Shown piece by piece: positions 2,231 through 60,730 of a stretch of 64,000 nucleotides of DNA; positions within the stretch are counted from its first letter, which is position 1, and every line of letters begins with the position of its first letter. The stretch comes from an uncultured Gammaproteobacteria bacterium (lineage in GTDB: Bacteria; Patescibacteriota; Patescibacteriia; UBA1558; GWA2-36-10), in the NCBI GenBank assembly GCA_964540095.1, contig CAZILH010000001.1, forward strand, positions 2,552 to 66,551. Direction: 5' to 3'. A program made the position numbers and the translations under genes. Below the pieces are notes generated by a model. The model saw only the letters and a program-made list of their open reading frames with translations. It did not search any database and was not told the DNA's origin.

Positions 2231-2404
2231 AATATTTTTCTTAATATTATTAAAGATACTATAAATTTGAAAAAATACCAAACAGCTATACGCATATACC
2301 CTCCACAAACCATTGACAAAATGTTTTATATATGATATAAAACATGGTCAACTTGCCGCAAGATACTATCTTGCTTCTCTGCACCTTTTCATTGGAGGCA
2401 TGTC

Positions 2405-2974
2405 ATGAACACGCTCAAATTCAAGCAAATGCTGCGCTGGTCACTGTTGAGTGCTGGGGGAATCGCTCTCTTCTGGATGATCTACTACATTATTCGCGGC
2501 TTTGTCCCGGTGAGCGACACCATCCGATGGAGTCGAGACAACACTATTATGCCTCCGTTCACACTGTCCCGCTGGTGGGACATTATGATGGGACCCATTT
2601 TCTCCGTTTTTGTCGTCTCGATCCTCAATTCGAACAGATCAAAGAAGGACGAAGACGAAGACTGGTACACTGGCTTTAACTGCGATCCACTCCTCGTGTT
2701 GGTTGCTGGTCTAATCCTTGGCCTAATAATTGGCCTGGATTTGACTTCGCTGCTGCCCATCAACGGCTGCTTGATGTACAGTGTTCTACTTATGATCATC
2801 GGTGAACTCATGGGTCTGGGCTTTTTACTGACCCTTGGCCTGGCCATCGGTTTTGGTGTCAGCCTACGCTGCGGACTGGTGGTTGGTCTGGGCTTCAGCC
2901 TCATTTTTCTACTGCTATGGCTTTTGGGGAAGAAACTCATAATCCGACTCTGGAAATGGCTCATGATTCGATGA
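2405..2974 (+). CDS. GC-rich cassette: multi-pass membrane protein, unknown function
   Basis: GGAGG RBS 8 nt upstream, TTGACA-17-TATAAA promoter at ~2312-2340; GC about 55% versus about 35% flanks; several hydrophobic helices; terminator ~3083-3125. Confidence 0.5.
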   Translation: MNTLKFKQMLRWSLLSAGGIALFWMIYYIIRGFVPVSDTIRWSRDNTIMPPFTLSRWWDIMMGPIFSVFVVSILNSNRSKKDEDEDWYTGFNCDPLLVLVAGLILGLIIGLDLTSLLPINGCLMYSVLLMIIGELMGLGFLLTLGLAIGFGVSLRCGLVVGLGFSLIFLLLWLLGKKLIIRLWKWLMIR

Positions 2975-3179
2975 GTACCCCCACCTTACTCTTGCCACTT
3001 GGCGATTTGGGAAGTTGCTGTGAAAGGCTGAGCCAAATGGCCAACTGACCTCGCCATCAAACCCAGAGCATGTCTCTGGGTCTGCTCGAGCCCGACGCAA
3101 CACACGCGCCGGGCTTTTCTTTTTATACCAAATTTATGCTAAAATATAATTATTAATAACCTTTAAAATACAAAAAGCT

Positions 3180-4310
3180 ATGAAACTCAAATTAATCGTC
3201 TTGGCTATGATGCTTATTTGGCCACTAAGCAGTTTGGCCATAGAAGCCCACAACAACAATTACCTTACTTTGGCTGAAGATCAAACGGTCAATGGTAATT
3301 ATTACGCGGCCGGCAACAAAATAGAAATTTTCGGCACAGTCAACGGTGATGTGTTTGCGGTTGGTAATGATATTGTCATTGATTCAGACAACATCAATGG
3401 TGATATTTTTGCCGCTGGCAACACTATCAGCATCAAAGGCAAGGTCAATGGTTCGCTTCGCTTAGTCGGACAAAAATTGGTAGTCGACGCTGAAGTGACT
3501 AGAAATATTTTGGCCGCTGGACAGAACTTGGATATAAATAAAGACGCAAAAATCCAAGGGCATGTCACTTTTGCCGGACAATCAGCCAGTGTCTATGGCA
3601 CAGTAGGCGGCCGCTTAGAATCGGCCTTGGAAAATCTACGACTCAGTGGACAGATTGCTGGTGATGCTGATGTTTATTTGGGTAGCAAAGACAAAAAGTT
3701 AGCCAATATTGATTTAGCGAATGGCGCCAAGATCAATGGCCATCTCAAATACTGGTCTAGCCAAACTTTGAACCTTGATCAGACAAAGGTTTCTCAAGGC
3801 ATTGAGCATCAGTCCATTACGCAAGTTGTTAAACGCCAAGCCAAACAGGGCTTCGGTCTCTTTGGCTGGCTATGGGAATTTTTATCAATGTTAGTTATTG
3901 CTTTGCTGTGGTGGCGCTGGCACAACAAATTTTTCTACCAAGCTCATGAGTTGGTCCAGAAGAACAAAGGCAAAAGTTTGCTGTGGGGCTTTCTTTCTTT
4001 GATTGCCATACCAGTATTGATTATCCTCCTGATGATCACAGTAATCGGCATACCTTTGGCTCTGATACTCTTGGCTAGCTGGTTGATTGCTTTGTGCTTG
4101 GCCAAAATTTTGGCTGCCTGGATTTTGATCCGTTTTGTCCAACAAGCTTGGTGGAAAAAATATCATGGTAAGGATTGGGCCTTACTCACCTTAGGTATTT
4201 TTATTATGAGTTTACTGGCCAAAATACCAGTGATCGGCTGGTTAATATGTTTTATCTTTTACCTGTGGGCTTGGGGGGCAATCATTCACTATTTTTACAA
4301 CAAAAAATAA
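3180..4310 (+). CDS. exported beta-helix repeat protein (bactofilin-like polymer-forming repeats) with C-terminal multi-TM anchor
   Basis: Signal peptide, then about 8 repeats of the xVNGDvFAaGNxIxIxG pattern typical of bactofilin/DUF583 beta-helix, then 4-5 TM helices. Confidence 0.6.
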   Translation: MKLKLIVLAMMLIWPLSSLAIEAHNNNYLTLAEDQTVNGNYYAAGNKIEIFGTVNGDVFAVGNDIVIDSDNINGDIFAAGNTISIKGKVNGSLRLVGQKLVVDAEVTRNILAAGQNLDINKDAKIQGHVTFAGQSASVYGTVGGRLESALENLRLSGQIAGDADVYLGSKDKKLANIDLANGAKINGHLKYWSSQTLNLDQTKVSQGIEHQSITQVVKRQAKQGFGLFGWLWEFLSMLVIALLWWRWHNKFFYQAHELVQKNKGKSLLWGFLSLIAIPVLIILLMITVIGIPLALILLASWLIALCLAKILAAWILIRFVQQAWWKKYHGKDWALLTLGIFIMSLLAKIPVIGWLICFIFYLWAWGAIIHYFYNKK

Positions 4311-4334
4311 AATTAATATCTCCGTAAAACGAAA

Positions 4335-4373
4335 CCAGCCCAGCTTCTCGCGAGAGGCTTGGCTGGGTTTTTT
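4335..4373 (+). terminator. intrinsic terminator containing palindromic core TTCTCGCGAGAGG
   Basis: Long GC stem ccagcccagc...gcttggctgg followed by tttttt. Confidence 0.6.
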
Positions 4374-4408
4374 GTCTATAAATTATATTTCAAAATATTA
4401 AAATTTTC

Positions 4409-4447
4409 TTTAAAATGGAAAGGCACGAGACCGCAGGGTCTCGTGCC
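4409..4447 (-). terminator. intrinsic terminator of GC-rich cassette gene 4473-4952
   Basis: Perfect 11-bp stem ggcacgagacc/ggtctcgtgcc, T-run on minus strand. Confidence 0.6.
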
Positions 4448-4472
4448 TTGAGTTGTTTGGCGGCCGGCCGCC

Positions 4473-4952
4473 TCAGTTCAGCGGCAGATCCACCTTCACG
4501 GGCCAGTCGCTCTCCCGCACCGTCAGCAGAGCGTAGAGGACATTGTTGTCCATGAGATCTTGCACTTGAGGTGTGCCCAACCTGCGGAACGGTGCCCAGC
4601 GGAATTTGATCGTCGGCGTCGTCGCCGACTCGTCGATCTTGACGCGGAACTTCTCCATGGGAAGGGAAGAAATGGCGTAGGTGCCGTCGTTCATTTCCCA
4701 GGAGAACTTCAGATTGACGCTGGTGCTGACCTGACTGTCCAAGCTGCCGACAATTAAGAAGAAGCTGGCGGAGGTGCTCGAGTTGACCTCCGTCCGCTCC
4801 ACCATCTTGCGCAGCCGGTGCTCGCCGCCCAGAAGTGCCTCGGTCAGTGACTTCTTCGGATGCTTCTGCTCGTTTTGAACGCTCAGGATACAAACAACGG
4901 CCAGGGCTACGACAACGATCGTAACGATAATCCAAATCCAACGCTTCGACAT
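4473..4952 (-). CDS. GC-rich cassette: N-terminally membrane-anchored hypothetical protein
   Basis: AAGGAGAG RBS and TTGACA-17-TATAAG promoter upstream (RC of ~4953-5040); about 58% GC; single N-terminal TM then about 130-aa domain; overlapping ORFs in other frames judged GC artefacts. Confidence 0.5.
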   Translation of the reverse strand: MSKRWIWIIVTIVVVALAVVCILSVQNEQKHPKKSLTEALLGGEHRLRKMVERTEVNSSTSASFFLIVGSLDSQVSTSVNLKFSWEMNDGTYAISSLPMEKFRVKIDESATTPTIKFRWAPFRRLGTPQVQDLMDNNVLYALLTVRESDWPVKVDLPLN

Positions 4953-5084
4953 GGCCCTCTCCTTTCAGGGATGAATGTTCCGATAAAACATTTACTTATA
5001 TCATATATTTCATTTTTTGTCAACCTATAAAAACCAAAACGAAAAACCGAGCTTAGCTCGGTCTTTCTATTTTTTATGTACAAA

Positions 5085-9521: not shown

Positions 9522-9730
9522 AAATATAAAGCCCCCGTCGACAAGTTGTTGTGTCTTGGATGAGACGGGGGCAAAGAATGAACGGGCGCCACAGCTATGA
9601 GTGGTCACTAGCCCTATCATGGGCTAGAGCTCCAGACACAGGGTCCGCGGCTACGGCTGAAGGACTCGCCTCAATTTCAACGAGTTCCACTCGTTACCTC
9701 TGTGGCGCCCGAAACGAAAACGAACAACGA
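9522..9730 (-). ncRNA. putative structured small RNA B (about 200 nt, GC-rich); identity unresolved
   Basis: Minus-strand TTGACA-17-TATCAT promoter (RC of ~9737-9765); 11-bp long-range stem gggcgccacag/ctgtggcgccc enclosing several hairpins; ends in 9-bp stem-loop gcccccgtc...gacgggggc plus T-run; no convincing ORF. Confidence 0.3.
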
Positions 9731-9782
9731 ATACAGATGATAGCAAACTAACCAGTAAATGTCAATGCCAGCCAAATACTTT

Positions 9783-10050
9783 AATAAAAAAATTAACCCT
9801 CCCATAGCCGTAGCTTTTGGGAGGGTTGAGGTAGTGGGTCGCCGCATCAATCGAAGAGGCATCGCTGTGGTTTAGCAGTTTTGAACACCGCAAGTGCATC
9901 TTGTCTCTACAGGAGGAAACGCTCTTGGTCTTGGCACGAAACTGTCCCGCCGGATCCCAGACTTCGATCTCGATCTAGACCGTGTGACCACAGCGATGAA
10001 GGCCTTTCCTCTTTGCTCGCGACGACCCCACAAAGGTGGCATGAGCGAAC
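9783..10050 (-). ncRNA. putative structured small RNA A (about 265 nt, GC-rich rod-like fold); SRP-RNA/6S-like candidates, identity unresolved
   Basis: Perfect minus-strand TTGACA-17-TATAAT promoter (RC of ~10057-10085); 12-bp perfect long-range pairing catcgctgtggt/accacagcgatg nested in outer stem gggtcgtcgc/gcggcgaccc; apical UCC-GGCG-GGA resembles SRP domain IV UCC-GGAA-GGA; terminator aaccctccc...gggagggtt plus T-run. Confidence 0.3.
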
Positions 10051-10109
10051 ACAATAATTATATTATGCCTTAATTTTTTTGTCAAAGTTTATTTATTAAA
10101 AAAAGGGAT

Positions 10110-14707: not shown

Positions 14708-14821
14708 AGTTATTGTTTATGCTTGTATTATAAAATCTTTCGAGTGACTTGTAAAGCAAAATTTGCCTTATCAGGATGATTATGATAAAAGAAAAGTGTA
14801 GGCACCAACCAAGGAGGAATT

Positions 14822-15082
14822 ATGGCCAACGTCATCAACGTCGACCAAGCTCCGCGGATCTCTCGGCGCCCCTTCTGGTACACCCTAGCGGTTTTTGCCT
14901 TTGTGGGCATGCTGATCCTGACGATCGGCTCGCTGTTCTTACCATCTCTAGCCGTCCTACTGCTCGAAGCACTCGTCCTGGGCCTCGCCCTGCTCTTTAC
15001 CTTGAGTTACTGGGTGATCGACATCGTTTGTCGAAGATTCGTTGACTGCCGCCAATTTCGGTGGCAAAAAAAAGGAGGCTGA
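14822..15082 (+). CDS. GC-rich cassette: small 2-TM membrane protein
   Basis: AAGGAGGA RBS at ~14808; GC-rich; two hydrophobic helices. Confidence 0.5.
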   Translation: MANVINVDQAPRISRRPFWYTLAVFAFVGMLILTIGSLFLPSLAVLLLEALVLGLALLFTLSYWVIDIVCRRFVDCRQFRWQKKGG

Positions 15083-15232
15083 GTGGGGATCGTGGCAGGT
15101 CCCAACAGAGAACAGATCCTGCATCAGTGGCCAACAAACGGCGCTGGTGCAGGATTTTTATTTTTAACAAAATTAAGAGCCCCCGTTCTGTGAAAAAACG
15201 GGGACTCATATTCGACAAGCTCCTAGCTAGAA

Positions 15233-15661
15233 TCAATCTGTGCGCAGATTGTAGATGAAGCTCTGCCTACGCAGATGATCAAGGATTGATTTGGTGACTG
15301 TTTGAGTGTCGCTGGTAGTCGTCAGGCCGATAGCTGTCCAACACACATCGTCAATTTGCAAAAGCCGAATGTCCCAATTCAGCTTCTGCTTATGCTGATA
15401 GTCGGTGAGCTCTTGACGCTGCGTGGGATCCAGTGGATAGCTGAATACCAGATAGACCTGATCCGGTGCCTCATACAAGACAAGGTAGATGAAGTCGATT
15501 TGGTACGGACTAATGACACCCTTACCCCATGTCAAACACTGGGTATTGTTGTGACTCGGTAATGTGGGCCAAATCAAAGGCATCACCGACGGCTCGTTGT
15601 TGCCAAGGGCCGGCATGGCCAAACACAGGAAGCAAAAGGCCAACAAAACAAAACGACACAT
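15233..15661 (-). CDS. GC-rich cassette: secreted hypothetical protein (signal peptide)
   Basis: N-terminal signal peptide MCRFVLLAFCFLCLAMPALG; GGAGG RBS; GC-rich. Confidence 0.5.
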   Translation of the reverse strand: MCRFVLLAFCFLCLAMPALGNNEPSVMPLIWPTLPSHNNTQCLTWGKGVISPYQIDFIYLVLYEAPDQVYLVFSYPLDPTQRQELTDYQHKQKLNWDIRLLQIDDVCWTAIGLTTTSDTQTVTKSILDHLRRQSFIYNLRTD

Positions 15662-15799
15662 GATGCCCCTCCTTGAGCGCTAGAAGTGATGAAAGAACTG
15701 GGACAATTGAGTAGTATATAGTAAATAAATAATTTGTAAAGAAAAAACAGGCTCGGATAATTCCGAGGCCTGCTTGTCTGGCCGACTCTGCTAAATACT

Positions 15800-16210
15800 T
15801 CACGCTTCCATCATGCGGACGAGACAAAGACGATTTTCATTGATCCGCCCAATAATCGACGGGGATTTGGCAAGCGCCTCCTCACTTCTTACTGCGCCCT
15901 CAATTCTATCTAGCTCTTGGCTAGTTAGCCGCCTTGCTGTGTAGCCAACCCCGCCGACACGACCATAAAAATCCAACAGCGAAGTTAGCACGCCATATCT
16001 CACATCCACGTTGAGCGTTTTGTCTTCTAGTTTTGCCAGAAGATAACTTATGTGAGTATCAGCCTCACGCTCAGTTCTGGCTCTACTAATTTCATTTTCT
16101 AACCTGCAAGCTTCCTCCTTTTTCTTGTCGCGATGTATTTGCCACCACATAGAAAAAGTTGCAACAAAAATGACCGAGCAGATTATCAGAATAGGAGTAA
16201 GGTAATGCAT
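15800..16210 (-). CDS. GC-rich cassette: N-terminal TM-anchored hypothetical protein
   Basis: GGAGG RBS; TM then charged coiled region; terminator hairpin ~15745-15780 downstream. Confidence 0.5.
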   Translation of the reverse strand: MHYLTPILIICSVIFVATFSMWWQIHRDKKKEEACRLENEISRARTEREADTHISYLLAKLEDKTLNVDVRYGVLTSLLDFYGRVGGVGYTARRLTSQELDRIEGAVRSEEALAKSPSIIGRINENRLCLVRMMEA

Positions 16211-16359
16211 GGCAACGCCTCCAAATCATCACTCTCTTGGCCAGACACTTAAAGAACTAATTTAAGTATATACTCTCTTTACCCTGGCCTGTCAATGGTG
16301 TATTTTTAATTCGTTTTATCAAAATTTCACAACTAAAAAACATCCTGTTTTGGGATGTC

Positions 16360-16437
16360 TGGTGGTCGCAGGAGGACTCGAACCTCCGACCTCTACAATG
16401 TCAATGTAGCGCTCTAACCAGCTGAGCTATGCGACCC
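16360..16437 (-). tRNA. tRNA-Val: tRNA-Val (anticodon GAC), CCA encoded
   Basis: RC folds as cloverleaf: GGGTCGCATAGCTCAGCTGGTTAGAGCGCTACATTGACATTGTAGAGGTCGGAGGTTCGAGTCCTCCTGCGACCACCA. Confidence 0.85.
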
Positions 16438-17638: not shown

Positions 17639-17771
17639 AAATTAAAACTTTTAAAAATACTGAACCACCCCACAATGACGCTGTTATTTATACTAAAAAA
17701 TGAAAAAAAAGTCAAAGTAACCAAGCCCACACAAAAAACAAGAGGGGCACCGGCTGTGTTGCCGACGCCCC

Positions 17772-18200
17772 CTAGAAACGAGTCTTATAGCAGACTGTCT
17801 CTTGACGACCATAAACCACTAAGTAGTCACGGCCGTATTCGCTGACAATGGCGATTGTGCCCTTGTCCGCCTTTTCATAAATGCGGTCAAAGAAGTGTGG
17901 CTCAGTCATACGGCCAGTAAAGGCGTTAGGCAGACAGTTGCTGTCAGGCAGTGTGCTGGCAAAGCTTCGACCATCAGGAAAACGATCAAGTAGAGACCAT
18001 GGCATTCGACCGGTAGCAGAGCGGAAATCCTTGATCGCTGGCTCAAGAAGCTGCGCCTGTGCTTCGGCTTTTTCTTGTTGTTGACCATCTTGATGTGCAT
18101 CTTTAAAAGCCCTGGCAATCCACATAACCAAACCAACTACCACGACAAGGGCCACGATAAGCACCGCCGCCCTTACTGCGCCTTTTTTAATTTTGTGCAT
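17772..18200 (-). CDS. GC-rich cassette: N-terminal TM-anchored hypothetical protein
   Basis: Strong AAGGAGGTGA RBS; divergent promoter region shared with 18384 gene; GC-rich. Confidence 0.5.
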   Translation of the reverse strand: MHKIKKGAVRAAVLIVALVVVVGLVMWIARAFKDAHQDGQQQEKAEAQAQLLEPAIKDFRSATGRMPWSLLDRFPDGRSFASTLPDSNCLPNAFTGRMTEPHFFDRIYEKADKGTIAIVSEYGRDYLVVYGRQETVCYKTRF

Positions 18201-18383
18201 AATGCAATCACCTCCTTCAAGGTGAAATGTGAAGTACTCTATCCCGCCCTGAAATTATCATTTTGCTGACACTGTGTCAAACTGCGCCTTACTAAATATT
18301 GACAAAATAGCCCTCATATAATAATATAATGCGTTCTTCACTGTCCTTCGCATCCCAACAAAAAACCCGAAATAATCGGGGAG

Positions 18384-18971
18384 GTGAAAATCATGTCTTT
18401 CTGGCAATGGTTGGAAAAGCGGCTGGTCACGGCTGACGATCCTCTTCCTCGTGGCTCAGCAGTCATCATTGGTGTTGGCATCGATGTGTCATCTAATGGT
18501 CGCTCTGCCAGCCCCTACTCCAGAGCCGTGGCTCAGAAGAGTGCTCTGCTCTTCCGTCTCGGCTGCGCTCGCCGGATTATCTTCACGGGTGGCTATTTCA
18601 AGCCCGGTGTTAGTGGCGTCACCGAAGCCTGGGGTATGGCCAACTGCCTCTTCCTTTACAAGCCGACCATACCAAGAGACAGGGTGGGGCTGGAGATCTA
18701 CGCCAACCGCACCTACCTGAACGCCGACTATACCTTACCCCTGCTTCGACCGGGTGAGAAAAGCGTGATCATTGTGGCCCAGCAGTGGCACGCTCGTCGT
18801 GTCCGTGCCACCTTCAAGAAACGCTGGGCTGGCTCAGGTATCGAAATCCGGGTCGTCAAGGCCTGGTCTAACTACGGTGGAGGAAGCCAGAAACGCCTCG
18901 ACCACTTCTGGTCATTTTTCCTCTGGGATTCACTCGCCTTCGTTGTCAGCAAGCTGAAGGGCTACTGCTGA
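18384..18971 (+). CDS. GC-rich cassette: DUF218/YdcF (ElyC/SanA-like) family protein
   Basis: GGAGGTG RBS, TTGACA-17-TAATAT promoter at ~18299-18327; pattern (IIFTGGY...VIIVAQQWHARR) resembles DUF218. Confidence 0.55.
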   Translation: MKIMSFWQWLEKRLVTADDPLPRGSAVIIGVGIDVSSNGRSASPYSRAVAQKSALLFRLGCARRIIFTGGYFKPGVSGVTEAWGMANCLFLYKPTIPRDRVGLEIYANRTYLNADYTLPLLRPGEKSVIIVAQQWHARRVRATFKKRWAGSGIEIRVVKAWSNYGGGSQKRLDHFWSFFLWDSLAFVVSKLKGYC

Positions 18972-19035
18972 CTCCTTGAGCTCCTTGCCCGCGCTACACA
19001 CGCCGGATAAGGAGCTTATTTTATTTTTAAAAAAT

Positions 19036-21582: not shown

Positions 21583-22098
21583 TTATCTAAAATAATTGTT
21601 AATTAATTCTTCTGTTTCTGTGCACTTTATAAATTCCGCATACCCCGGATCTTCTGGTTCTAGCATCCGCCCAGTACTACAAGCATCGGCCCATAATAAA
21701 TAATCTTTATAAGCGTGCTTTGGCCCAATAATACCGGCATTACAAAAAGCTTCTGGTTGAACTGTTAAAAAACTCAAAAATTTTTCATTGCTCCAATGAT
21801 AATAATTTGGAGTAATAATGGTCTTAATTCCCCCGGGCAAATCCAAACCCTTCATACTGCCACTCTCAGTGAGTTTTAAAAATTCATTAAACTCTTCATT
21901 GGGACAAGTCTTATCAAAAGATCTTTCTACTGGATTAGTTATTTCTTGATAGAGACTAAAATTTTCTATTTGTTTAATTATTGGGTTATTTTTTTTATTT
22001 GCTATAAAAAAATATAAGCCAACTAAAAACAATGGAATTAAAAATAAAATAATTAATAAATGCTTTTTATTTAATAAAAACATATTAAAAATCACCAC
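21583..22098 (-). CDS. hypothetical membrane-anchored protein
   Basis: N-terminal TM; AT-rich host-like composition; no motif. Confidence 0.4.
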   Translation of the reverse strand: MVIFNMFLLNKKHLLIILFLIPLFLVGLYFFIANKKNNPIIKQIENFSLYQEITNPVERSFDKTCPNEEFNEFLKLTESGSMKGLDLPGGIKTIITPNYYHWSNEKFLSFLTVQPEAFCNAGIIGPKHAYKDYLLWADACSTGRMLEPEDPGYAEFIKCTETEELINNYFR

Positions 22099-23140: not shown

Positions 23141-23176
23141 GTGCCGGACGGAGAGTGGGGACTCTCCGTCCGGACT
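23141..23176 (-). terminator. intrinsic terminator of GC-rich lipoprotein gene
   Basis: Perfect 12-bp stem ccggacggagag/ctctccgtccgg with tgggg loop. Confidence 0.6.
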
Positions 23177-23184
23177 TTCACGCA

Positions 23185-23808
23185 TCACCCACCAATCACG
23201 TAGTAGCAGGTGTAAAGTGACACCTGGGACTCGAAGGTGGAAAAAGAAACGAAGCGTTCACGAACATAGTTCGTGGCAACCCAGTTGCTTTCGATGATGT
23301 TCATGCCAGCCGAACCAGTCGCCGTCACAATGAATGTGTGTGGTGTGACGCCCTTGGACGTTTTCCAGTTGGTTTGCACGATGCAACCAGGAAAAACCGT
23401 CCTGATGTTGCCTAGGGGCCTCAGATAGGGACTGCTGGCGAAATACCAGCCACTGGCATTCGGGAGTGTGCTGGGCAAGTTCACCACATTCCGCGAGGCA
23501 GCCAAGACAACGGCACGAGCCCAATCCTTGCAGTTCAGGCCAACGTAACGCCCGTTGTCCACCCACGCCCTCTCAATGATCGCCTGATTCCGCGTAGCCT
23601 GACTCAAGCCACGCCACCACGCCTTGTCGGCGGCAGTCGGAATCGCCTTATCCACCTGCCCACTGGGAACATCCGGGTTCTCTCCGCCCGGCTGAACACT
23701 CGTGGTCGGAGCCGTGACCATCGGCTCCTCCCCATCACAGCCCGCCATCCAGGACAGCAGGCCCAGGGCCAGCAGTACGCTGACCAGCAAACTCACTCTG
23801 CTCTTCAT
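23185..23808 (-). CDS. GC-rich cassette: lipoprotein of unknown function
   Basis: Signal peptide with lipobox LSWMAGC; GGAGGA RBS; about 60% GC. Confidence 0.5.
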   Translation of the reverse strand: MKSRVSLLVSVLLALGLLSWMAGCDGEEPMVTAPTTSVQPGGENPDVPSGQVDKAIPTAADKAWWRGLSQATRNQAIIERAWVDNGRYVGLNCKDWARAVVLAASRNVVNLPSTLPNASGWYFASSPYLRPLGNIRTVFPGCIVQTNWKTSKGVTPHTFIVTATGSAGMNIIESNWVATNYVRERFVSFSTFESQVSLYTCYYVIGG

Positions 23809-24044
23809 GACAAGTCCTCCAATGAAAAAGACCTAGGAACAAACACGCGTCTGACTCTTGAGGGTAGTGGCAAAAATAAACCTCCTTTGTTGTAAAGAAC
23901 AAGTGCTCGCTCTTTTACCCTCACAAAAAATTGAGCCAGCTAAAAACTTTCGCTTTTCTTAGCTTGGACAAGGCCCGAAAGATACAGGCAAACTTTTTAG
24001 GCCTTGCTCCAAGATAAAAAAATATCTTAAAAAATTATGATAAA

Positions 24045-25454: not shown

Positions 25455-25543
25455 ATTTATATATTATACTTTTTTGACATAAAAAAGAAATGCCAGCTAT
25501 ACTTCTTGTGATGCACCAGAACCTAACAAATAGGGAGGTGGTC

Positions 25544-26047
25544 ATGGGACAACAACTCAAAGCCAAAATGGTGGTTTTTGAAAAACCGCAAATCGACGGT
25601 TTCGATTCAGAATGTTGGCTTGAGGGCATTTCAGTACTTACTCTTCCTCTCTTCTATTTTCTGGAACACGGGTGTGTCTTACCACAAGAAACCCAGCAAA
25701 ACGATTGCTCCTACATACACCCCTACTTCCAGATCCGAGAGACAAGAATAGAAGAGAACTGCCCCGTTGATGAGGCAATGGAGGCAGAAGGCGAAGAGTT
25801 GGACATGTCTCTAGCTGACCGAGATGTTGATTGGAAAGAACATGATGCTTTGGAAAGGCAATTTGATCTTGAAAATGAAGCTGGAACAGATGGCTTTGTA
25901 ATTATCACTTTGCCAAAATCAATCCTTTCCCTGACACCTTGGGATGCCCCCTGTGAAAACGAGGAAGAAATGCTGTGGGGCTTTGACCTCACTGCCAGCG
26001 ACATCCCTCGCACACCCATAACCTGCCAATACAGCAGGTACTCCTAA
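25544..26047 (+). CDS. moderately GC-rich cassette: acidic hypothetical protein
   Basis: GGGAGGTGG RBS before ATG at 25544; about 47% GC; strong terminator caccccgcgg...gcggggtg plus T-run at ~26052-26085. Confidence 0.45.
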   Translation: MGQQLKAKMVVFEKPQIDGFDSECWLEGISVLTLPLFYFLEHGCVLPQETQQNDCSYIHPYFQIRETRIEENCPVDEAMEAEGEELDMSLADRDVDWKEHDALERQFDLENEAGTDGFVIITLPKSILSLTPWDAPCENEEEMLWGFDLTASDIPRTPITCQYSRYS

Positions 26048-26093
26048 AACACCCCGCGGACAATTCTGCGGGGTGTTCACTTTTTTATTAATT

Positions 26094-28880: not shown

Positions 28881-29172
28881 ATACCCTCTAGGGGTATTAT
28901 AGCAAGGGCATAAAAATACGTCAAGTGGTGGGGTGCTGGTGACTAGTTATACTTCTCGACTCTCTCTCGACGAGCTCGAGATCGCTCGAAGAAATAAGCT
29001 TTTGTTCGAGTAAGGTTATGCAAAGCATAACTGCATCGAGAACTACGTATGTTCAGAACTTCTCGACTCCACCTTTCGGTGTCGCTCGAAGAAATGTGCT
29101 CTCTCAAATATTTGACAATAATCCTAATAGGTGATATAATATAGTGTTTCCATAACCCGGGAGGTTCTTTCT

Positions 29173-29445
29173 ATGACAGACCGCAAGGGTCCTTCGCCCG
29201 TAAGTGCGCTCTGCATCTGGGTGGCGTATCTGGCGGCAATCGCACTCGAGTCCCTGCTTCTCTGCCATACTTGGTGGCAGGTCGCGGCGCTGGTGGTAAT
29301 CGGGGTCGTGGTGTTCCTGATCATTATGGTTCCAGCTGGCGTGCTCAACATCAAGCGCTATGCCTCAGTACACATCCTTCTCATCGCCATCCTCGTCCTT
29401 TCTGCCCTCGTCTACAAGGCCCTCTACAAAACCATCTTCGGGTGA
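29173..29445 (+). CDS. GC-rich cassette: small 2-3 TM membrane protein
   Basis: GGGAGG RBS; hydrophobic; terminator gccccgc...gcggggc plus T-run at ~29455-29510. Confidence 0.45.
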   Translation: MTDRKGPSPVSALCIWVAYLAAIALESLLLCHTWWQVAALVVIGVVVFLIIMVPAGVLNIKRYASVHILLIAILVLSALVYKALYKTIFG

Positions 29446-29878
29446 CAACACATCACCCAGAATGGAGATTGAGCCCCGCGGTACACACGCTGCGGGGCCT
29501 TAATTTTGTTTAATTTTAATAATAAATTGGCTAACCCAGTTAGAAATTTACCTTAGTTTGCATATTAGATGAACTTATCGGCAACTAAGTGACAATTTTA
29601 CTAATAATGTAACGTGAAATACTCAAAATAATTTCTAACTGGGCTAATATTAGCCAAATATATTGCTTCTGTAAAGAAACGATAATAAATACTGGCCTTG
29701 ACAAATACTGATAAATAATATATTATTTTATGTTATTTTAAGTACTTTAAATTACTTGCAAAAACGCGGTAGTCATAGCCAAAAACGGCTTAAAAATAGG
29801 CCTTTTCTGGCTATGACTACCAATTCCGGTGGTCCGCTGGCGCCAAATGGCACATGTGCCAAAAAAAGGAGTGAAGAC

Positions 29879-30442
29879 ATGTCTTCATATTCCGAGGGCC
29901 AAGTCCACCAGCTAGTGGACAAGCTGGAGGCCGCCGGCTACACCGCCGACGACATTACCAAGCTTGGGCAGTCCAAGCACCTGCTCGAGATCAGGGATGT
30001 CTTGAACGACCGTGCTGTCATCAGCTACCCCAAGCACCTCATCGACTGCGACGCCTTGCCCTTCACCCCCAACGGCTGGGAAGTCGTCGAGCACAAGCAG
30101 GGTGGTCAGTTAGAGTGGAACCCCGCGCGGGTGAAGCTCTATCTGGCCAAGAGTCAGAAGCCCGGCAAGCTCGTCGAGGGCAGCAAGCTCCGCAATGAGC
30201 TGGAAGGCCAGATGGTCTTGAATGCCAACCTTCTCGACTACCTGCTGAAGAACCCTGAACTCATCCCCGACGAGTGGAAGAGAAAGGGAATTTTCTTCTG
30301 GGGCACAATCTACCGTTACTCGCTCGACGGCCTGTGTGTCCGCTACCTCTACTGGGACGGCAGCAGGTGGTACTGGAGCTACCGCTGGCTCTACGACAGC
30401 TTCTATTCCAACGATCTGGCTGCAGTGTCTGCAAGTATCTAG
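29879..30442 (+). CDS. GC-rich cassette: hypothetical protein with aromatic-rich C-terminus
   Basis: AAGGAG RBS before ATG 29879; upstream TTGACA-17-TATTAT promoter (~29707-29735) and 13-bp perfect palindrome in 5' UTR; about 60% GC. Confidence 0.45.
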   Translation: MSSYSEGQVHQLVDKLEAAGYTADDITKLGQSKHLLEIRDVLNDRAVISYPKHLIDCDALPFTPNGWEVVEHKQGGQLEWNPARVKLYLAKSQKPGKLVEGSKLRNELEGQMVLNANLLDYLLKNPELIPDEWKRKGIFFWGTIYRYSLDGLCVRYLYWDGSRWYWSYRWLYDSFYSNDLAAVSASI

Positions 30443-30621
30443 GTCCCTTGGACTTTGGATCTCGGGATCTCCTTTGATCCTTGGACCCCAGTCCTCTGGA
30501 CACACACAGAAGCCTCGTACTCCCATTGCGGATGCGGGGCTTCTTCTTTTTTTAAATAAAAAAACCGATAACATCGGCCCGTCTAAGTAAATTAAAATTG
30601 ATTAAAAATATAATCAAAATA

Positions 30622-30697
30622 TGGTGTCCTTGAGAGGAATCGAACCTCTATTTAGGCCTTAGGAGAGCCTTGTTCTATCCATTGAACTACAAGGACC
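30622..30697 (-). tRNA. tRNA-Arg: tRNA-Arg (anticodon CCT), CCA encoded
   Basis: RC: GGTCCTTGTAGTTCAATGGATAGAACAAGGCTCTCCTAAGGCCTAAATAGAGGTTCGATTCCTCTCAAGGACACCA. Confidence 0.85.
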
Positions 30698-36574: not shown

Positions 36575-36725
36575 TTTGGCAAATTATTATAAATTTGCTA
36601 TAATATATGGACACTCGAAAATCCCTGCGTCGAACAGGAGTTTCTCGGGCGCTATAGAGATATGTAATTTCAGAAATGAAGCAAAAAACATCCGTGCGCG
36701 ATCTAGGGTGTTTTTTGTTTAAAAA
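36575..36725 (+). ncRNA. small promoter-terminator unit downstream of dnaN (about 100-nt transcript), candidate sRNA or micro-ORF (16 aa)
   Basis: TTGGCA-17-TATAAT promoter ~36578-36606, terminator acatcc...gggtgt plus TTTTTT at ~36695-36720. Confidence 0.25.
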
Positions 36726-36734
36726 AAATTCCCC

Positions 36735-36771
36735 CGCCCCTGGACTGTGGTCCGGGTGGGGCGGGGGTAAG
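36735..36771 (-). terminator. intrinsic terminator of GC-rich basic-protein gene
   Basis: 10-bp stem cccccgcccc/ggggcggggg, A-run upstream on plus strand (T-run on minus). Confidence 0.6.
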
Positions 36772-36787
36772 AAGCGGCATGAGCCCG

Positions 36788-37348
36788 CTACTTCTTGGGC
36801 TTGGTTCTGGCCTTGGCCTTGGTCAGGGCCAAGGCAAAGCGCTGGAAGGCGCGCTTGACCTGGCGCTCGTAGACCAGGCCATAACGCTTGGCCAGGCGCC
36901 GGCCTTCGCGCTCCAGAGCACGATCATCACTTCTGAGTTGCATCCACACCTCGTGGAGGTGTGAGGTCTGCGCTGGCTTGATGCGGAAATCAACGTGCCG
37001 ACGGCGCTTTCCACTGCCACGGTGGCGGGGTTGCTGGGCCAGCCGTTTGCGTAGCTTGCCCTGCCTGGAGCGCAAGCCACGGACCTCTTGCCGTAGACGA
37101 GAACACTGGGCCGACTGGCGCTTGTTGGCGGCCTCCAGGCGTGAGACCCTGGCCCGAGACATTGCCAGGTCAGCGGCCAGGTCTTTGAGCGCCTTTTTCA
37201 CTAGACGCTCAAAGCGCGTTTGCTCAGCAGCGGCCGAGCGGCGCAGACCGGCTAGGGTTTGTTTTCGACGAGTCACGTAAGGACCCTCCTGGTGTTGGGG
37301 TGGAACAGCGGCTGAATTGCCGAACATTATCTTATACACCATAATCAC
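36788..37348 (-). CDS. GC-rich cassette (about 66% GC): highly basic Arg-rich coiled-coil protein
   Basis: TTGACA-17-TATAAG promoter upstream (RC of ~37349-37400); Arg/Lys-rich heptad-like sequence; other-frame ORFs considered GC artefacts. Confidence 0.45.
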   Translation of the reverse strand: MIMVYKIMFGNSAAVPPQHQEGPYVTRRKQTLAGLRRSAAAEQTRFERLVKKALKDLAADLAMSRARVSRLEAANKRQSAQCSRLRQEVRGLRSRQGKLRKRLAQQPRHRGSGKRRRHVDFRIKPAQTSHLHEVWMQLRSDDRALEREGRRLAKRYGLVYERQVKRAFQRFALALTKAKARTKPKK

Positions 37349-37401
37349 GTTTTTGTCAATAGTAAATTGCCCAGATATTTTAAATTTGTTATTATAAGGG
37401 C

Positions 37402-56551: not shown

Positions 56552-56552
56552 T

Positions 56553-57917
56553 ATGCGTGGCTACAAAATAATTACATTATTATTAATCGGAGTGTTTGTC
56601 ATCACCTCTGGTTTTGGTTGTAAGGGCTTGGGTTGTTCTACAGATGTTGCTAGTCAACCCGTAGCTTTGACCTACTGGGGAGTGTGGGATAGCCCCACGC
56701 AAGTAGCTGGTTTGATACAGGATTATCAGGCTAGCCACCCTACTGTGAAAATCATCTACAAACAACTTCGCTATGAAGAATACGAAAGAAAATTATTAGA
56801 GGCCTGGGCTGATGATCGGGGGCCAGATATTTTTGCCATTCCCGCTAGCTGGCTCAATAAATACCAAAATCGCATTGTGCCCATGCCTAGTAAAGTCCAA
56901 ATTCCAGTGCAAGAAATAAAAGGCACTATAAAAAAAGAAACGGTTGTCACCTTGCAGACAGTCACAGGACTTCGTGCTGATGAAGTCAAAAATCAGTATG
57001 TTGATGTGGTATACAACAATGTTGTCAAAAATAATCAAATCTATGCTCTGCCATATTCGCTAGACACACTGGTCACTTTTTATAACGAAGATTTGCTTGA
57101 TCAGGCTAGCTTGCCTGAAAAAATTATCACCTTCAATGATCTGGTGGACCAGACCAGTCAGCTGACCAAAGTGACTACTGATAATAAAATAGTCCAATCA
57201 GGCGTGGCTTTGGGTACTGCCGACAATATACCAAGATTTTTTGATATAGTTTCTAGTTTGATGCTCCAGACCGAGGTTAATCTGAAGGGCGCAAAGTTTA
57301 ATCCAGTTGGCGGAGAGCAATCAGCCGCCAGATTTCGAGAAGCCATAAATTTTTATATCAGCTTTGCTCGACCGGGCTTGGCCTCATATTCTTGGGATAA
57401 GAGTTTGCCCAATGCTTTTGATATGTTTAGCTCTGGCAAACTAGCTTACTTCTTTGGCTATAGCTATCACGCTGACGCTTTGCGTAAAGCGGGCGTGCCA
57501 TTTGAATGGGGTATTACCAATTTTCCACAAACTGAAGGATCACAAGGTACAAAATATTATGCTGATTACTGGGTCAATGTTGTGGCCAAAAAGTCCAAGA
57601 ACCAAGGCGTGGCTTGGAACTTTGTTCAAAACACCGCTAGCGCCCAAAATGTCAAAAAATATTTGGATCAAAACAAAAAACCAACTGCCTTGCGTTCATT
57701 GATCACTGAGCAAAAGAATAACCCCGACATTGCTCCTTTTGCCAATCAGGTTTTGACAGCCGACAACTGGTATACTGGTTATGATTATCCCAAAGCTGAA
57801 AGTTACATGGCCGAGTTTATCAATGGTCTAGCTGACAACAAAATTGATATCAACAACCAGTCAGATTTGAAATTATTTATTGATAGAATAAATCAAACCT
57901 ACCAACCCAGCCAATGA
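56553..57917 (+). CDS. extracellular solute-binding lipoprotein (ABC transporter SBP family 1, sugar-type)
   Basis: Lipoprotein signal (ITSGFGC), SBP_bac_1-like length and pattern; no adjacent permease genes. Confidence 0.7.
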   Translation: MRGYKIITLLLIGVFVITSGFGCKGLGCSTDVASQPVALTYWGVWDSPTQVAGLIQDYQASHPTVKIIYKQLRYEEYERKLLEAWADDRGPDIFAIPASWLNKYQNRIVPMPSKVQIPVQEIKGTIKKETVVTLQTVTGLRADEVKNQYVDVVYNNVVKNNQIYALPYSLDTLVTFYNEDLLDQASLPEKIITFNDLVDQTSQLTKVTTDNKIVQSGVALGTADNIPRFFDIVSSLMLQTEVNLKGAKFNPVGGEQSAARFREAINFYISFARPGLASYSWDKSLPNAFDMFSSGKLAYFFGYSYHADALRKAGVPFEWGITNFPQTEGSQGTKYYADYWVNVVAKKSKNQGVAWNFVQNTASAQNVKKYLDQNKKPTALRSLITEQKNNPDIAPFANQVLTADNWYTGYDYPKAESYMAEFINGLADNKIDINNQSDLKLFIDRINQTYQPSQ

Positions 57918-58600
57918 AATATTTTAAAATAATAATTTTAGTAGCCCTTGCTTTGCCGCTAATAGCTTTTGCGCAAACAACACCGCCAGGGTTTTTGGAC
58001 TCCTTGAGTTGTGTCACTGATGGGGATTGCCAATTAGCTGATGTGGCCACGGGTTTTATTTTGTTGACCAAGTTATTGCTTGGCGCTATGGGAGCGGTGG
58101 CCTTGTTGTACTTTGTGATTGGTGGCTTCCAGTGGATGACCTCACAGGGCAACCAAGAAAAAGTGCGTAAAGGCCAGCAGACCATGACCAACACCGTCAT
58201 TGCTTTGTTCATTGCTTTTACTAGTTATTTACTATTGAACTTTTTTGTCAATAATATTTTGGGAGTAAAGAGTGATTATATGATCGGCGATGCCCTAGCT
58301 CAGTGCGATGGCAAGTCAGATGGCACGGCCTGCAACGTGGTTGCTGGTAGCACCTCCATCAATCCCTACGAATGTTTTTCTGAAGAGTGTGTCACTAAAT
58401 GTAAGGTAAAAGCCAATATGACTAGTTTGAATTGGCAGTGTTATACTGTACCGAATCCAGAATTAATATCAACAGACACTACTTATTATGAGAGAAACCT
58501 GTGTCCTGGTGATGAACACACTGTTTGCACTTTATTAAATGCCAGTGGAGAACCAGCTGATCCAGCTTATCAAGCATTCTTGCATCGTTTTGTTCCTTGA
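57914..58600 (+). CDS. pilin-like 2-TM protein (VirB2/TrbC-like topology) fused to C-terminal Cys-rich extracellular domain
   Basis: Sec signal (AFA-QTT), conserved paralog core LLLGAMGAVALLYFVIGGFQWMTSQGNQEKVRKGQQT...IALFIAFTSYLLLNF, then about 100-aa domain with at least 10 Cys. Confidence 0.5.
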   Translation: MKYFKIIILVALALPLIAFAQTTPPGFLDSLSCVTDGDCQLADVATGFILLTKLLLGAMGAVALLYFVIGGFQWMTSQGNQEKVRKGQQTMTNTVIALFIAFTSYLLLNFFVNNILGVKSDYMIGDALAQCDGKSDGTACNVVAGSTSINPYECFSEECVTKCKVKANMTSLNWQCYTVPNPELISTDTTYYERNLCPGDEHTVCTLLNASGEPADPAYQAFLHRFVP

Positions 58601-58616
58601 TTATAAAATTATATAT

Positions 58617-58943: not shown

Positions 58944-59032
58944 TGTTTTGTGGTTTTTGGACTATAATATTATTAGTAAAAAGTACCTTGTTATTAATTA
59001 TTAAAATCTTAAAAATGAGAGGAGGTGAAGAA

Positions 59033-59398
59033 ATGAAAAAATTATTAGTTGCTTTAATGCTTTTAGCGCCAAGTATGGCCATGGCTCAAGCTCCTGACAT
59101 AAGTGAAGATCCATTTGGTCGCAATACCCTAGGAGAGCTTTCAACAGCGGGTGAAAGCAAAGACATATTTGTGGTAATTTCAAATATTACGAATATCATC
59201 TTGACTTTCTTAGGCGCGATTGCCGTCTTGTTATTCCTTTATGGTGGATTCAAATGGTTCACTTCTCAGGGTAACAGTGAGCAAATTGAAGCTGCCAAGA
59301 AAATCATGGGCGCCGCCGTTGTTGGCTTGGCCATTATTTTCGCTTCATACGCCGCCGCTCAATACATCTTTGATCAATTATCAAATCAACTTTTATAG
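59033..59398 (+). CDS. pilin-like 2-TM small secreted protein (VirB2/TrbC-like), paralog 3
   Basis: GAGGAGGTG RBS; Sec signal (AMA-QAP); core LTFLGAIAVLLFLYGGFKWFTSQGNSEQIEAAKKIMGAAVVGLAIIFASYAAAQYI. Confidence 0.5.
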   Translation: MKKLLVALMLLAPSMAMAQAPDISEDPFGRNTLGELSTAGESKDIFVVISNITNIILTFLGAIAVLLFLYGGFKWFTSQGNSEQIEAAKKIMGAAVVGLAIIFASYAAAQYIFDQLSNQLL

Positions 59399-59471
59399 CG
59401 GTATATTTGAACTCAGACATATAGTCTAGACTATAGTAGGCAAACTTTTTGCCTACTAAGGTGTGAATTAT

Positions 59472-59855
59472 ATGTATCAATATATTATTTCCTTATTTCT
59501 ATTGTTGCCTTTTACTGCCCTAGCAGTGAATCCTTTGGACTCTTTGAATGAAGCGGCTGGAGGCACTGGCTTGGTGAGTAATAAAACTCCGATTCAAATT
59601 ATTACCTCCATTATCAACACCATCCTTTATTTTGTGGGGGCCATAGTTATTGTTCTGATGCTTTGGGCGGGTTTCAAGTGGATGACCTCAGCTGGCAACA
59701 CCGACGCCATCAAAAAATCTAGAGAAACTATTATCAATGCCGTGATTGGCTTGGTAATTATTTTCGCTTCATATGTAATAGTCAATTATGTAATGCTAAG
59801 ATTGATTGAGGGTATTGGTGTTGGGGGTGTAACGGGCTCCACGGTTATTGATTAA
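59472..59855 (+). CDS. pilin-like 2-TM small secreted protein (VirB2/TrbC-like), paralog 4
   Basis: Sec signal (ALA-VNP); core ILYFVGAIVIVLMLWAGFKWMTSAGNTDAIKKSRETIINAVIGLVIIFASYVIVNYV. Confidence 0.5.
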   Translation: MYQYIISLFLLLPFTALAVNPLDSLNEAAGGTGLVSNKTPIQIITSIINTILYFVGAIVIVLMLWAGFKWMTSAGNTDAIKKSRETIINAVIGLVIIFASYVIVNYVMLRLIEGIGVGGVTGSTVID

Positions 59856-59887
59856 TTAATATTAGATTTTTATAAAAATAAATAACG

Positions 59888-59916
59888 GCTCCAATCTATC
59901 ATCGATTGGAGCCGTG
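59888..59916. terminator. bidirectional terminator hairpin ggctccaatc/gattggagcc
   Basis: 10-bp perfect stem, A-run upstream (T-run on minus strand) between convergent pilin paralog 4 and GC-rich lipoprotein gene. Confidence 0.55.
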
Positions 59917-59935
59917 TTGTGACACCGCGGTGATC

Positions 59936-60583
59936 CTAGTGGATCAAGAACACTGCGTCGACAGCGCGACCTTTATAAGGCACCTTATGGCCAGGTGCCA
60001 AGTAATGATAGCGATGTCCTATTGTGGCATAGGTGTTTGCGTTTGCGAGTCGCCAGCTGAGAAAGTACTCACCATCGACAACGAACAAGGTTTTGTCCTC
60101 AAAGGTTTTGAGGATAAAGGTATTACCTCGCCCATCAGCAAAGCTCAGGGGCATCGGGCTGGTGTTCTCCACAACGATTTCCAACTTTGCCCAGTTGCGG
60201 AGTAGATCCTCGGTGATGGTGATGGCTTGGTTGAATAGGCCAACACCCCTGTAGTGTTGTACTCGCAACTCGCCGTTGTAGCCAACCACTTCCTTCCAGG
60301 AGACTTCGTAGTCGAAGTACTTCTTGGAGGTGAACTCGACTGGCAGGGAGTCCCTGTAGGCCACCGGCATGAAAACCCCGCCATTCACAGCGATCGATAC
60401 CCAGCCGTCGTATTGCTGGTAAAAACCGATGCTGGTGATCGGTTTATCATCCCCGTAGGGATGATCCAACGGGCGACCTTCTCGGTCTTGGTAATCGACA
60501 CCCAGGCCAAAGGGCAGGCGGCCAGCGCAGCCACAGAGCGGTAGCAGGGCCACCAGGCACAGGGAAACAAACACGTTACGCAT
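59936..60583 (-). CDS. GC-rich cassette: lipoprotein of unknown function
   Basis: Consensus TTGACA-17-TATAAT promoter and GAGGTG RBS upstream (RC of ~60584-60680); lipobox LPLCGC; about 55% GC. Confidence 0.5.
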   Translation of the reverse strand: MRNVFVSLCLVALLPLCGCAGRLPFGLGVDYQDREGRPLDHPYGDDKPITSIGFYQQYDGWVSIAVNGGVFMPVAYRDSLPVEFTSKKYFDYEVSWKEVVGYNGELRVQHYRGVGLFNQAITITEDLLRNWAKLEIVVENTSPMPLSFADGRGNTFILKTFEDKTLFVVDGEYFLSWRLANANTYATIGHRYHYLAPGHKVPYKGRAVDAVFLIH

Positions 60584-60730
60584 ATAGCACCTCACTTGTT
60601 CAAGGTTCGGATTCATGCCCAAAATAGGGCTTTTACTAACATTATATTATATACTAAATATCAATATTTGTCAATGTCACACTTTAAAAACAAGCCGACG
60701 GCTTGAATTTGGTGTGCTATAATTATACTG

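Follow-up and report, generated by a model that had tools for sequence, protein, structure and literature searches.

Phage morons are single genes that lie between linked neighbors, carry their own promoter and factor-independent terminator, deviate in base composition, come and go between relatives, and are often antisense to the genes around them. Here we describe ~14 accessory genes with the same organization in a 64-kb stretch of a Patescibacteria chromosome (the window, positions 2,552 to 66,551 of contig CAZILH010000001.1 in GenBank assembly GCA_964540095.1). Each gene is an autonomous transcription unit, and together they are not one system. Unlike morons, they are surrounded by chromosomal housekeeping genes (trmD, rpsP, dnaN, ruvA, gdh, rnhB) and not by phage genes, and we know of no classical morons in which coding regions diverge faster than their flanks.

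A further comparison is with flexible islets, or replacement-type hypervariable loci, such as surface-antigen or O-antigen loci and the hypervariable regions of SAR11 or Prochlorococcus. The islands described here share with them fixed slots in a backbone, differing and often nonhomologous envelope-related genes in those slots, exchange via the flanks, and fast protein evolution. They differ in being single genes at more than 10 sites within 64 kb and in exceeding the GC content of the core by 10 to 20 points. For most bacteria, it is the accessory DNA that is the AT-richer of the two. Integron cassettes are also small single-gene units of variable content, but the islands lack an integrase, attC or attI sites, and an array, have their own promoters, and share no common ends. 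A literature search of incomplete coverage found no account of GC-rich accessory cassettes in Patescibacteria. What is new is how densely single-gene slots are packed, that divergence is limited to coding regions and, above all, that the accessory genes are GC-richer than the core. An earlier sequence-only reading of the window did not recognize a described system in it, which is the wrong frame for a heterogeneous set of accessory genes.

Organization and base composition of the islands

The sequence-only reading had listed ten compositional islands. Each of these intervals is 46.5 to 62.3% GC, and pooled they reach 51.8% compared to 39.5% outside them and 41.1% for the window overall. Eight of the ten are GC-richer than every non-island window of equal length (z = 2.9 to 6.2), while the excess is weak at 34-477 (48.4%, z = 2.1) and 25544-26085 (46.5%, z = 1.8). 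The codon-usage check that had been proposed alongside also gave a nonuniform profile. GC content at third codon positions (GC3) is 0.61 to 0.81 in the island open reading frames (ORFs), read in the frame with the lowest GC2, versus 0.31 to 0.47 in core genes. Base frequencies at third positions are A.115, C.393, G.298, and T.193 in islands and A.258, C.206, G.203, and T.333 in core genes. CTG and CTC make up 0.62 of Leu codons in islands and 0.15 in the core, which prefers TTG/TTA; the corresponding fractions are 0.68 and 0.13 for Phe TTC and 0.73 and 0.26 for Lys AAG. Structured RNA genes were ruled out as the source of the GC peaks, as an Rfam scan gave no family match within any island and there are just three flanking tRNA genes (tRNA-Val, tRNA-Leu, and tRNA-Arg, each adjoining one island).

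The islands had been described as single-gene cassettes. They do consist of autonomous units, but three of those listed (14776-16215, 17772-18975, and 29124-30600) each comprise two or three transcription units, which brings the total to ~14 genes. These are given below with the extent of the unit, the coding sequence (CDS), and the predicted signals and products.

I1, 1..539, plus strand: CDS 40-477 (145 aa, orphan, without signal peptide) with a ribosome-binding site, terminator hairpin 509-539; GC3 0.63; promoter outside the window edge.
I2, 2283..3124, plus strand: promoter 2313-2341 (TTGACA-17-TATAAA), CDS 2405-2974 (189 aa, ~5 predicted transmembrane segments), terminator 3088-3124; GC3 0.63.
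I3, 4335..5033, minus strand: promoter 5023-4995 (TTGACA-17-TATAAG), CDS 4952-4473 (159 aa, predicted signal-anchor), terminator 4449-4420; GC3 0.79; an extra hairpin at 4335-4373 is the present terminator of the upstream gene.
I4a, 14776..15165, plus strand: CDS 14822-15082 (86 aa, 2 transmembrane segments), terminator 15116-15165; GC3 0.68.
I4b, 15177..15740, minus strand: promoter 15740-15713, CDS 15661-15233 (142 aa, signal peptide), terminator 15207-15177; GC3 0.61.
I4c, 15742..16295, minus strand: promoter 16295-16265, CDS 16210-15800 (136 aa, N-terminal anchor), terminator 15770-15742; GC 46%; adjoins tRNA-Val (16360-16436).
I5a, 17733..18280, minus strand: promoter 18280-18252, CDS 18200-17772 (142 aa, N-terminal anchor), terminator 17772-17733; adjoins tRNA-Leu.
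I5b, 18299..19028, plus strand: promoter 18299-18327, CDS 18393-18971 (DUF218), terminator 18972-19028; GC3 0.66.
I6, 23144..23896, minus strand: CDS 23808-23185 (207 aa, lipobox LSWMAGC), terminator 23173-23144; GC 58%, GC3 0.70.
I7, 25474..26086, plus strand: promoter 25474-25503, CDS 25544-26047 (167 aa, acidic, predicted cytoplasmic), terminator 26048-26086; GC 46.5%; antisense, between gdh and rnhB.
I8a, 29112..29507, plus strand: promoter 29112-29140 (12/12), CDS 29173-29445 (90 aa, 3 to 4 predicted transmembrane segments), terminator 29473-29507; GC3 0.74.
I8b, 29698..30553, plus strand: promoter 29698-29726, CDS 29879-30442 (187 aa), terminator 30509-30553; GC3 0.81; adjoins tRNA-Arg (30622-30696).
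I9, 36721..37359, minus strand: promoter 37359-37331, CDS 37327-36788 (179 aa, helical, 49 Lys+Arg), terminator 36767-36721; between dnaN and ruvA; the GC-richest island (62%).
I10, 59874..60674, minus strand: promoter 60674-60646 (12/12), CDS 60580-59936 (lipoprotein, lipobox LPLCGC), terminator 59915-59874; GC3 0.66.

The predicted unit opens with an AT-rich promoter of the sigma-70 type and a GGAGG ribosome-binding site, continues with the GC-rich coding region, and closes with a GC hairpin terminator. GGAGG-type sites lie 6 to 9 nt 5' of the ATG in 12 of the 14 genes, and a GC-rich hairpin stands 3' of all 14. Perfect 12/12 TTGACA-17-TATAAT promoters were found ahead of ORFs at three places: two (29112-29140, plus strand, and 60674-60646, minus strand) are predicted to serve I8a and I10, and the third (10085-10057, minus strand) heads a GC-rich untranslated unit. 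Near-consensus promoters (11/12 or 10/12) are located at 25474, 29698, and 18299. The strong Shine-Dalgarno sequences, hairpin terminators, and near-consensus promoters reported earlier were therefore all recovered. The description of the products as small exported proteins held in part. Nine of the 14 contain a hydrophobic segment (N-terminal or internal) or a lipobox and are predicted to be envelope or secreted proteins, while I1, I5b, I7, I8b, and I9 have no hydrophobic segment and look cytoplasmic.

Most island proteins are orphans. Scans against Pfam, PHROGs, PADLOC, and NCBIfam returned only DUF218 (PF02698) in I5b (E = 4.4e-13, 49.7 bits versus a gathering cutoff of 27.6) and subthreshold noise, with no notable match in PHROGs. 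When the islands were compared with each other, no DNA or translated similarity and no common end sequences were detected, and the missing similarity rules out a repeated mobile element.

The backbone genes form replication-co-oriented blocks on both sides of a GC-skew minimum near 30.6 kb. They include trmD, rpsP, SMC, RNase III, and VanW-like genes; gdh, rnhB, SSB, and the thioredoxin system; yidC, rnpA, dnaA, dnaN, and ruvA; and FemAB, a Mur ligase, rpoB, rpoC, FtsK, and RecA. With replichores set from the GC-skew minimum and the dnaA position (origin region ~30.6 to 35.4 kb), 9 of 14 island genes are head-on to replication versus 3 of 42 core genes (Fisher P = 4e-5).

Turnover of the slots and divergence of coding regions

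Contigs syntenic with the window carry the label Patescibacteria group bacterium, and the relatives compared share 76 to 94% of backbone DNA identity with it. The loci named below lie on JBAYIQ010000004 (L007 and L012, ~84 to 94% DNA identity to the window), JGI contig Ga0393274_0000149 (L001, L010, and L101, ~88 to 94%), ERZ781236 contigs (L015 and L103, ~87 to 91%), and CAYRIU010000034 (L008); L111 and L113 are from more distant genomes. CAYRIU010000034.1 is titled "uncultured Gammaproteobacteria bacterium," although it is collinear with the Patescibacteria window over 17 kb at ~76% identity, and this label is probably a binning or naming error.

Comparison of these sequences shows that the units occupy intergenic slots of a conserved backbone and that slot content turns over between close strains. 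This upholds the earlier claim of insertion into conserved neighborhoods, for which a synteny check had been proposed. Clean empty sites exist in relatives for I2, I3, I4c, I7, I8b, and I9, and two slots (I2 and I8b) are occupied by unrelated GC-rich genes in other strains. The I2 slot is empty in L008 and holds unrelated GC-rich genes for secreted or membrane proteins in L001 and L007 (GC3 of 0.82 and 0.79); the three cassettes found in this slot (window, L001, and L007) have in common the -35 region ATTGACAAAATG and the same terminator. I3 is 94% identical in L001 and L006 and precisely absent in L007 and L008, where one bidirectional terminator stands between the convergent neighbors. In L010 and L012, the I8b slot contains an unrelated GC-rich gene of 217 to 224 aa; in L015, it is empty. 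I7 is absent in L010, L011, L012, and L014, which have a 40-bp spacer, and present in L015 and L016. I9 is a 615-bp insertion relative to L101 and L103, which have a 210-bp spacer. The I4c unit is missing in L012 and L015. I4a, I4b, I5a, I5b, and I8a are common to close relatives. A/T-rich direct repeats of 7 to 9 nt flank I3, I4c, I7, and I9 and are weak evidence for an insertion route, as such repeats are expected by chance in AT-rich spacers.

At the place of I4c, L012 and L015 carry a GC-rich segment of ~200 to 250 bp (47 to 51% GC) that lies between a terminator hairpin and tRNA-Val (e.g., L015 16150-16396).

In the region of I6, L010 and L012 have Peptidase_C39_2 and PsbP-like genes instead, and the region is deleted in L015. 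The signal peptide and ~35 residues of I6 are identical to those of the Peptidase_C39_2 lipoprotein of L010, while the mature domains are unrelated.

Where orthologs exist, island proteins evolve rapidly. Island dN is 0.04 to 0.66 versus 0.003 to 0.07 in core genes (i.e., 3 to 10 times), and dN/dS is 0.2 to 0.6 versus 0.03 to 0.1. Substitutions are concentrated at third codon positions, and these comparisons show the island ORFs to be real genes under weak purifying selection as judged from their substitution patterns. For single genes, dN/dS is 0.23 in I3, dN is 0.09 to 0.15 in I5a versus ~0.03 in the core, and I4b has a protein identity of 77 to 85% (dN of 0.08 to 0.14) in L012 and L015. I5b is present in all relatives with a protein identity of 75 to 79%.

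In the alignments, this divergence is confined to the coding regions, and the regulatory flanks are conserved. The I8a CDS is 62 to 75% identical at the DNA level in L010, L012, and L015, compared to 89 to 96% for the 120-nt flanks; the values are 64% versus 85 to 91% for I1 and 66 to 84% versus 85 to 94% for I4a. In core genes, CDS and flank identity are equal. The boundary is sharp in I1, for which the protein identity to the L001 allele is 34 to 39%: the 31 nt through the ribosome-binding site are 100% identical, identity is ~55 to 64% from the next base on, and it recovers ~20 nt past the stop codon. Transitions account for 74% of substitutions in islands and 82% in core genes, an ordinary spectrum, so nothing indicates a specialized mutator.

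A variable-protein relative, a wall hydrolase, and other features

The described system closest to I8b is that of diversity-generating retroelements (DGRs) and their variable proteins (PMC5758913; PMC8144416). I8b has 421 homologs (50 to 85% identity), whose only names are those of hypothetical Patescibacteria proteins. Two unrelated Patescibacteria genomes (L018 and L019) have a homolog immediately upstream of bAvd and an RVT_1 reverse transcriptase, accompanied by a template/variable repeat pair with A-specific mismatches, and I8b is 55 to 60% identical to confirmed DGR targets. Across the family alignment, the scaffold is invariant and the last 40 residues at the C terminus are hypervariable, and similarity to the DGR targets extends past the stop codon. 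The structure model of I8b has a pLDDT of 91.8, and its C-type-lectin matches are weak (E of at least 0.2). In contrast to bona fide DGRs, the I8b locus lacks a reverse transcriptase, Avd, and a template repeat: tblastn with the L018 and L019 reverse transcriptase and Avd gave no match in the window or in close relatives, and a second copy of the I8b variable region was not found in the window. The other 13 island genes have no DGR features, and the substitution spectrum of the islands is ordinary. I8b is therefore, by sequence, a member of a DGR-type target-protein family and either an orphan or a remote target. Orphan members of the family are also numerous in other genomes. IMG/VR holds four relatives of the I8b C-terminal domain and no relatives of I3, I6, or I9.

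The high GC content of I8b recurs in its family. Among 54 loci flanked by 1.5 kb or more, from hosts of 28 to 57% GC, the I8b-family gene is GC-richer than its genome in 53, with a mean excess of 12 points and a maximum of 27 (sign test P = 6e-15). In these cassettes, the reverse-transcriptase gene is 6 points AT-richer than its flanks, and within single DGR cassettes the target can be 20 to 30 points GC-richer than the reverse-transcriptase gene (56% versus 26% in L052; also L032 and L096). DGR-style adenine mutagenesis was ruled out as the cause of the GC-richness of the islands, since their third positions are poor in A and T alike and their substitution spectrum is ordinary. In one cluster, the target scaffold diverges ~5 times faster than the adjoining avd and reverse-transcriptase genes.

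I6 is matched by no Pfam model, but its structural model resembles CHAP endolysin domains (Foldseek 5d74, E = 2.6e-5, probability 1.0; also 4olk and 4csh), and the matches include a type VI secretion system (T6SS) amidase. Cys93 is invariant in the family alignment and His157 nearly so. The modeled fold thus identifies I6 as a CHAP-fold cell-wall-hydrolase lipoprotein with predicted activity. It shares the CHAP fold of the mature domain and the Cys-His pair with the CHAP and NlpC-P60 hydrolases (phage endolysins and T6SS Tae effectors). It differs from them in being a lipoprotein of a narrow family (~12 sequences, Patescibacteria only) and in that its domain alternates with Peptidase_C39_2 behind the same signal peptide in sister strains.

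Beside the GC-rich I6 are two membrane-anchored accessory ORFs of only 29 to 34% GC (21583-23105, minus strand). The AT-rich gene of 337/338 aa by I6 is syntenic in L111 and L113 and is AT-richer than the genome there too, so that I6 and this neighbor hold opposite composition deviations across species. AT-rich accessory genes such as those at 21583-23105 would be expected of a compositionally mixed pool.

Homologs of I9 were found in four close relatives only (63 to 85% identity), and those of I10 form five clusters only (40 to 48% identity). A polysaccharide flippase, a Wzy-like ligase, and a DUF2079 membrane protein near I10 mark its neighborhood as one of envelope biogenesis. Two T4SS-pilin-like (TrbC/VirB2) genes (57914-58600 and 59463-59855) flank the region just upstream of I10.

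Three further features of the window lie outside the 14 genes. At 9621-10085 (minus strand), two promoters, 10085-10057 (12/12) and 9765-9737 (11/12 with TG), each precede a GC-rich stretch without a convincing ORF. The first stretch is ~250 nt long and ends at a hairpin and T-run near 9800, and the second is ~110 nt long and reaches the SMC start codon. The region is 83% identical to L001 and gave no Rfam match with E < 0.6, and the two stretches look like small RNAs or leaders. Another candidate small RNA is located between dnaN and I9 (36576-36735, plus strand), where a promoter (TTGGCA-17-TATAAT, 36576-36604) is followed by ~100 nt to a T-run; L101 and L103 have a near-identical unit, and Rfam gave no match to it. 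Finally, two ~110-bp copies at 29532-29646 and 1208-1315 have the inverted repeat CCC(A/G)GTTAGAAAT as ends and an AT-rich, nonconserved interior. The copy at 29532-29646 is an insertion compared to L015, and the unit could be either MITE-like or a paired operator.

Origin of the GC-richness

Our preferred reading, held with middling confidence, is that the islands are lineage-specific Patescibacteria accessory genes that were recombined within a Patescibacteria pool GC-richer than this genome and have since drifted slowly toward host composition. Cassettes would be exchanged inside this pool by homologous recombination, in which conserved sequences (flanks, promoters, signal peptides, and terminators) would act as homology arms when an allele or cassette is replaced; RecA is encoded in the window. 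First insertions would be occasional illegitimate events at A/T-rich microhomologies. The products (anchored or secreted proteins, a wall hydrolase, and a lectin-like variable protein) would be fast-evolving cell-surface and host-interaction factors under diversifying pressure, plausibly from hosts or phages. The secreted host-interaction factors proposed by the sequence-only reading are in keeping with the many envelope or secreted proteins and with the CHAP-type wall hydrolase; the origin from a high-GC host that had been proposed for them is not supported. A two-state likelihood fit to the synonymous columns of I5a, I5b, and I8a gave islands a GC3 of 0.71 at the root and 0.39 at equilibrium (95% interval, 0.20 to 0.66); for the core, these values are 0.45 and 0.33. 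GC-high outlier ORFs are rare in ~19 other Patescibacteria loci (11 of 256, mostly DGR targets themselves), and the island density seen here is therefore lineage-specific. Several observations weigh against import. The likelihood interval is wide and comes from three genes only, and no GC-rich donor or reservoir was found among the homologs. The parsimony signal of island decay toward AT can be reproduced by artifact alone and was discounted, because a simulation at equilibrium gives the same ratio. The GC excess of the I8b family in 53 of 54 genomes, including hosts of 50 to 55% GC, and of targets over the reverse-transcriptase genes of the same cassettes is a property of the gene family and is not explained by a donor signature. 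In L113, the CHAP gene keeps both its place and its GC excess (57.9% versus 41%), and in L111 it does so partly (42.5% versus 34%), with an AT-rich neighbor in all. The I8a and I1 alleles are near synonymous saturation, yet all are GC-rich.

Much of this would be explained if the loci were long resident and a persistent force, GC-biased gene conversion or synonymous selection on GC or mRNA, maintained the composition of fast-evolving coding regions locally, which we regard as a possibility to be taken seriously but not as the probable answer. It fits the family-wide excess of DGR targets beside AT-richer reverse-transcriptase genes, the GC-rich CHAP gene of L113 and its raised counterpart in L111, and the strongly diverged alleles of the same slot, which are all GC-rich with conserved AT-rich regulatory flanks; by a simple relaxation calculation, host bias alone would have cut the GC3 excess to 14 to 44% of its start at those divergences. 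There is also no clear decay of the I8b family in hosts of ~31% GC, and a second set of four sequences gave an equilibrium GC of 0.37 for the target versus 0.28 for the downstream retroelement genes. Local maintenance is opposed by the fitted island equilibrium, which is below the root value, and by the rarity of GC-high outliers in other Patescibacteria loci. The highly expressed core genes rpoB, rpoC, and rpsP are not GC-rich, which disfavors a general expression-linked selection, and we know of no gene-conversion effects this large in bacteria. Between import from a GC-richer pool and local maintenance, import is slightly favored. The sequence-only reading had instead suggested capture from a high-GC host of an episymbiont (e.g., Actinobacteria), with the genes kept as secreted effectors behind native promoters. 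The islands do have a codon usage like that of a 55 to 60% GC genome, AT-rich promoters ahead of GC-rich coding regions, and one predicted wall hydrolase, but searches of 5.8 billion and 1.8 billion proteins found that the homologs of I8b, I6, I9, and I10 are all of the Patescibacteria type (for the remaining ten genes, the searches covered family, phage, and plasmid libraries only), and contigs with I8b homologs have sizes and contexts typical of the candidate phyla radiation. The ORFs are in their native frame (GC3 highest, GC2 lowest), so donor homologs, if they exist, should be detectable. We therefore disfavor host capture and regard it as very improbable. Moron-like organization, the three islands that adjoin tRNA genes, the four IMG/VR relatives of the I8b C-terminal domain, and the short direct repeats could also point to phage morons or remnants of prophages or mobile elements, such as integron-like cassettes or tRNA-targeting islands. 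The organization that suggested morons is real, but the phage link did not materialize: tblastn and blastn searches of phage and plasmid records returned nothing, those four relatives are all that the phage-directed searches yielded, and I3, I6, and I9 have none in IMG/VR. No phage, integrase, transposase, or recombinase genes were found in or beside the islands, no end sequences or attC-like repeats are common to them, repeats of 7 to 9 nt in A/T runs are chance-expected in such spacers, and no integrase is present at the three islands that abut tRNAs (a tRNA-end repeat was not specifically searched for). We consider an origin from mobile elements unlikely. The source is a metagenome-assembled genome and most of the proteins are orphans, as would be the case for chimeric joins or for GC-rich noncoding DNA with spurious ORFs. 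Independent assemblies of different samples (JGI, ENA, NCBI, and Logan) show the same islands with the same junctions, which effectively refutes chimeras, and dN/dS below 1, third-position-biased substitutions, GC1 > GC2 < GC3 periodicity, correctly spaced ribosome-binding sites, and confident models for two proteins leave artifact with next to no probability.

A bolder proposal, which we think doubtful, is that in this Patescibacteria lineage a process confined to the coding region, from immediately past the ribosome-binding site to just past the stop codon, both speeds divergence and holds accessory envelope genes GC-rich. Candidates for such a process are GC-biased gene conversion at hypervariable loci that are hot for recombination and selection on synonymous GC. 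If true, the accessory genome would be systematically GC-richer than the core, the opposite of the usual bacterial pattern, and the same force would account for GC-rich DGR targets versus AT-rich reverse-transcriptase genes across the candidate phyla radiation. GC-rich accessory genes in an AT-rich core, like GC-rich DGR targets, run contrary to the rule that acquired DNA is AT-rich, and if their GC content is locally maintained, few bacterial cases of gene-specific composition control would be as strong.

Members of the candidate phyla radiation are believed to lead a life attached to host cells, and the proteins that make this contact are largely unknown. The window defines a compact class of candidates for host contact, namely, strongly signaled, fast-evolving, and strain-variable envelope genes. 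Base composition alone suffices to find such candidates, which here include a predicted wall hydrolase and a predicted ligand-binding protein of the retroelement type.

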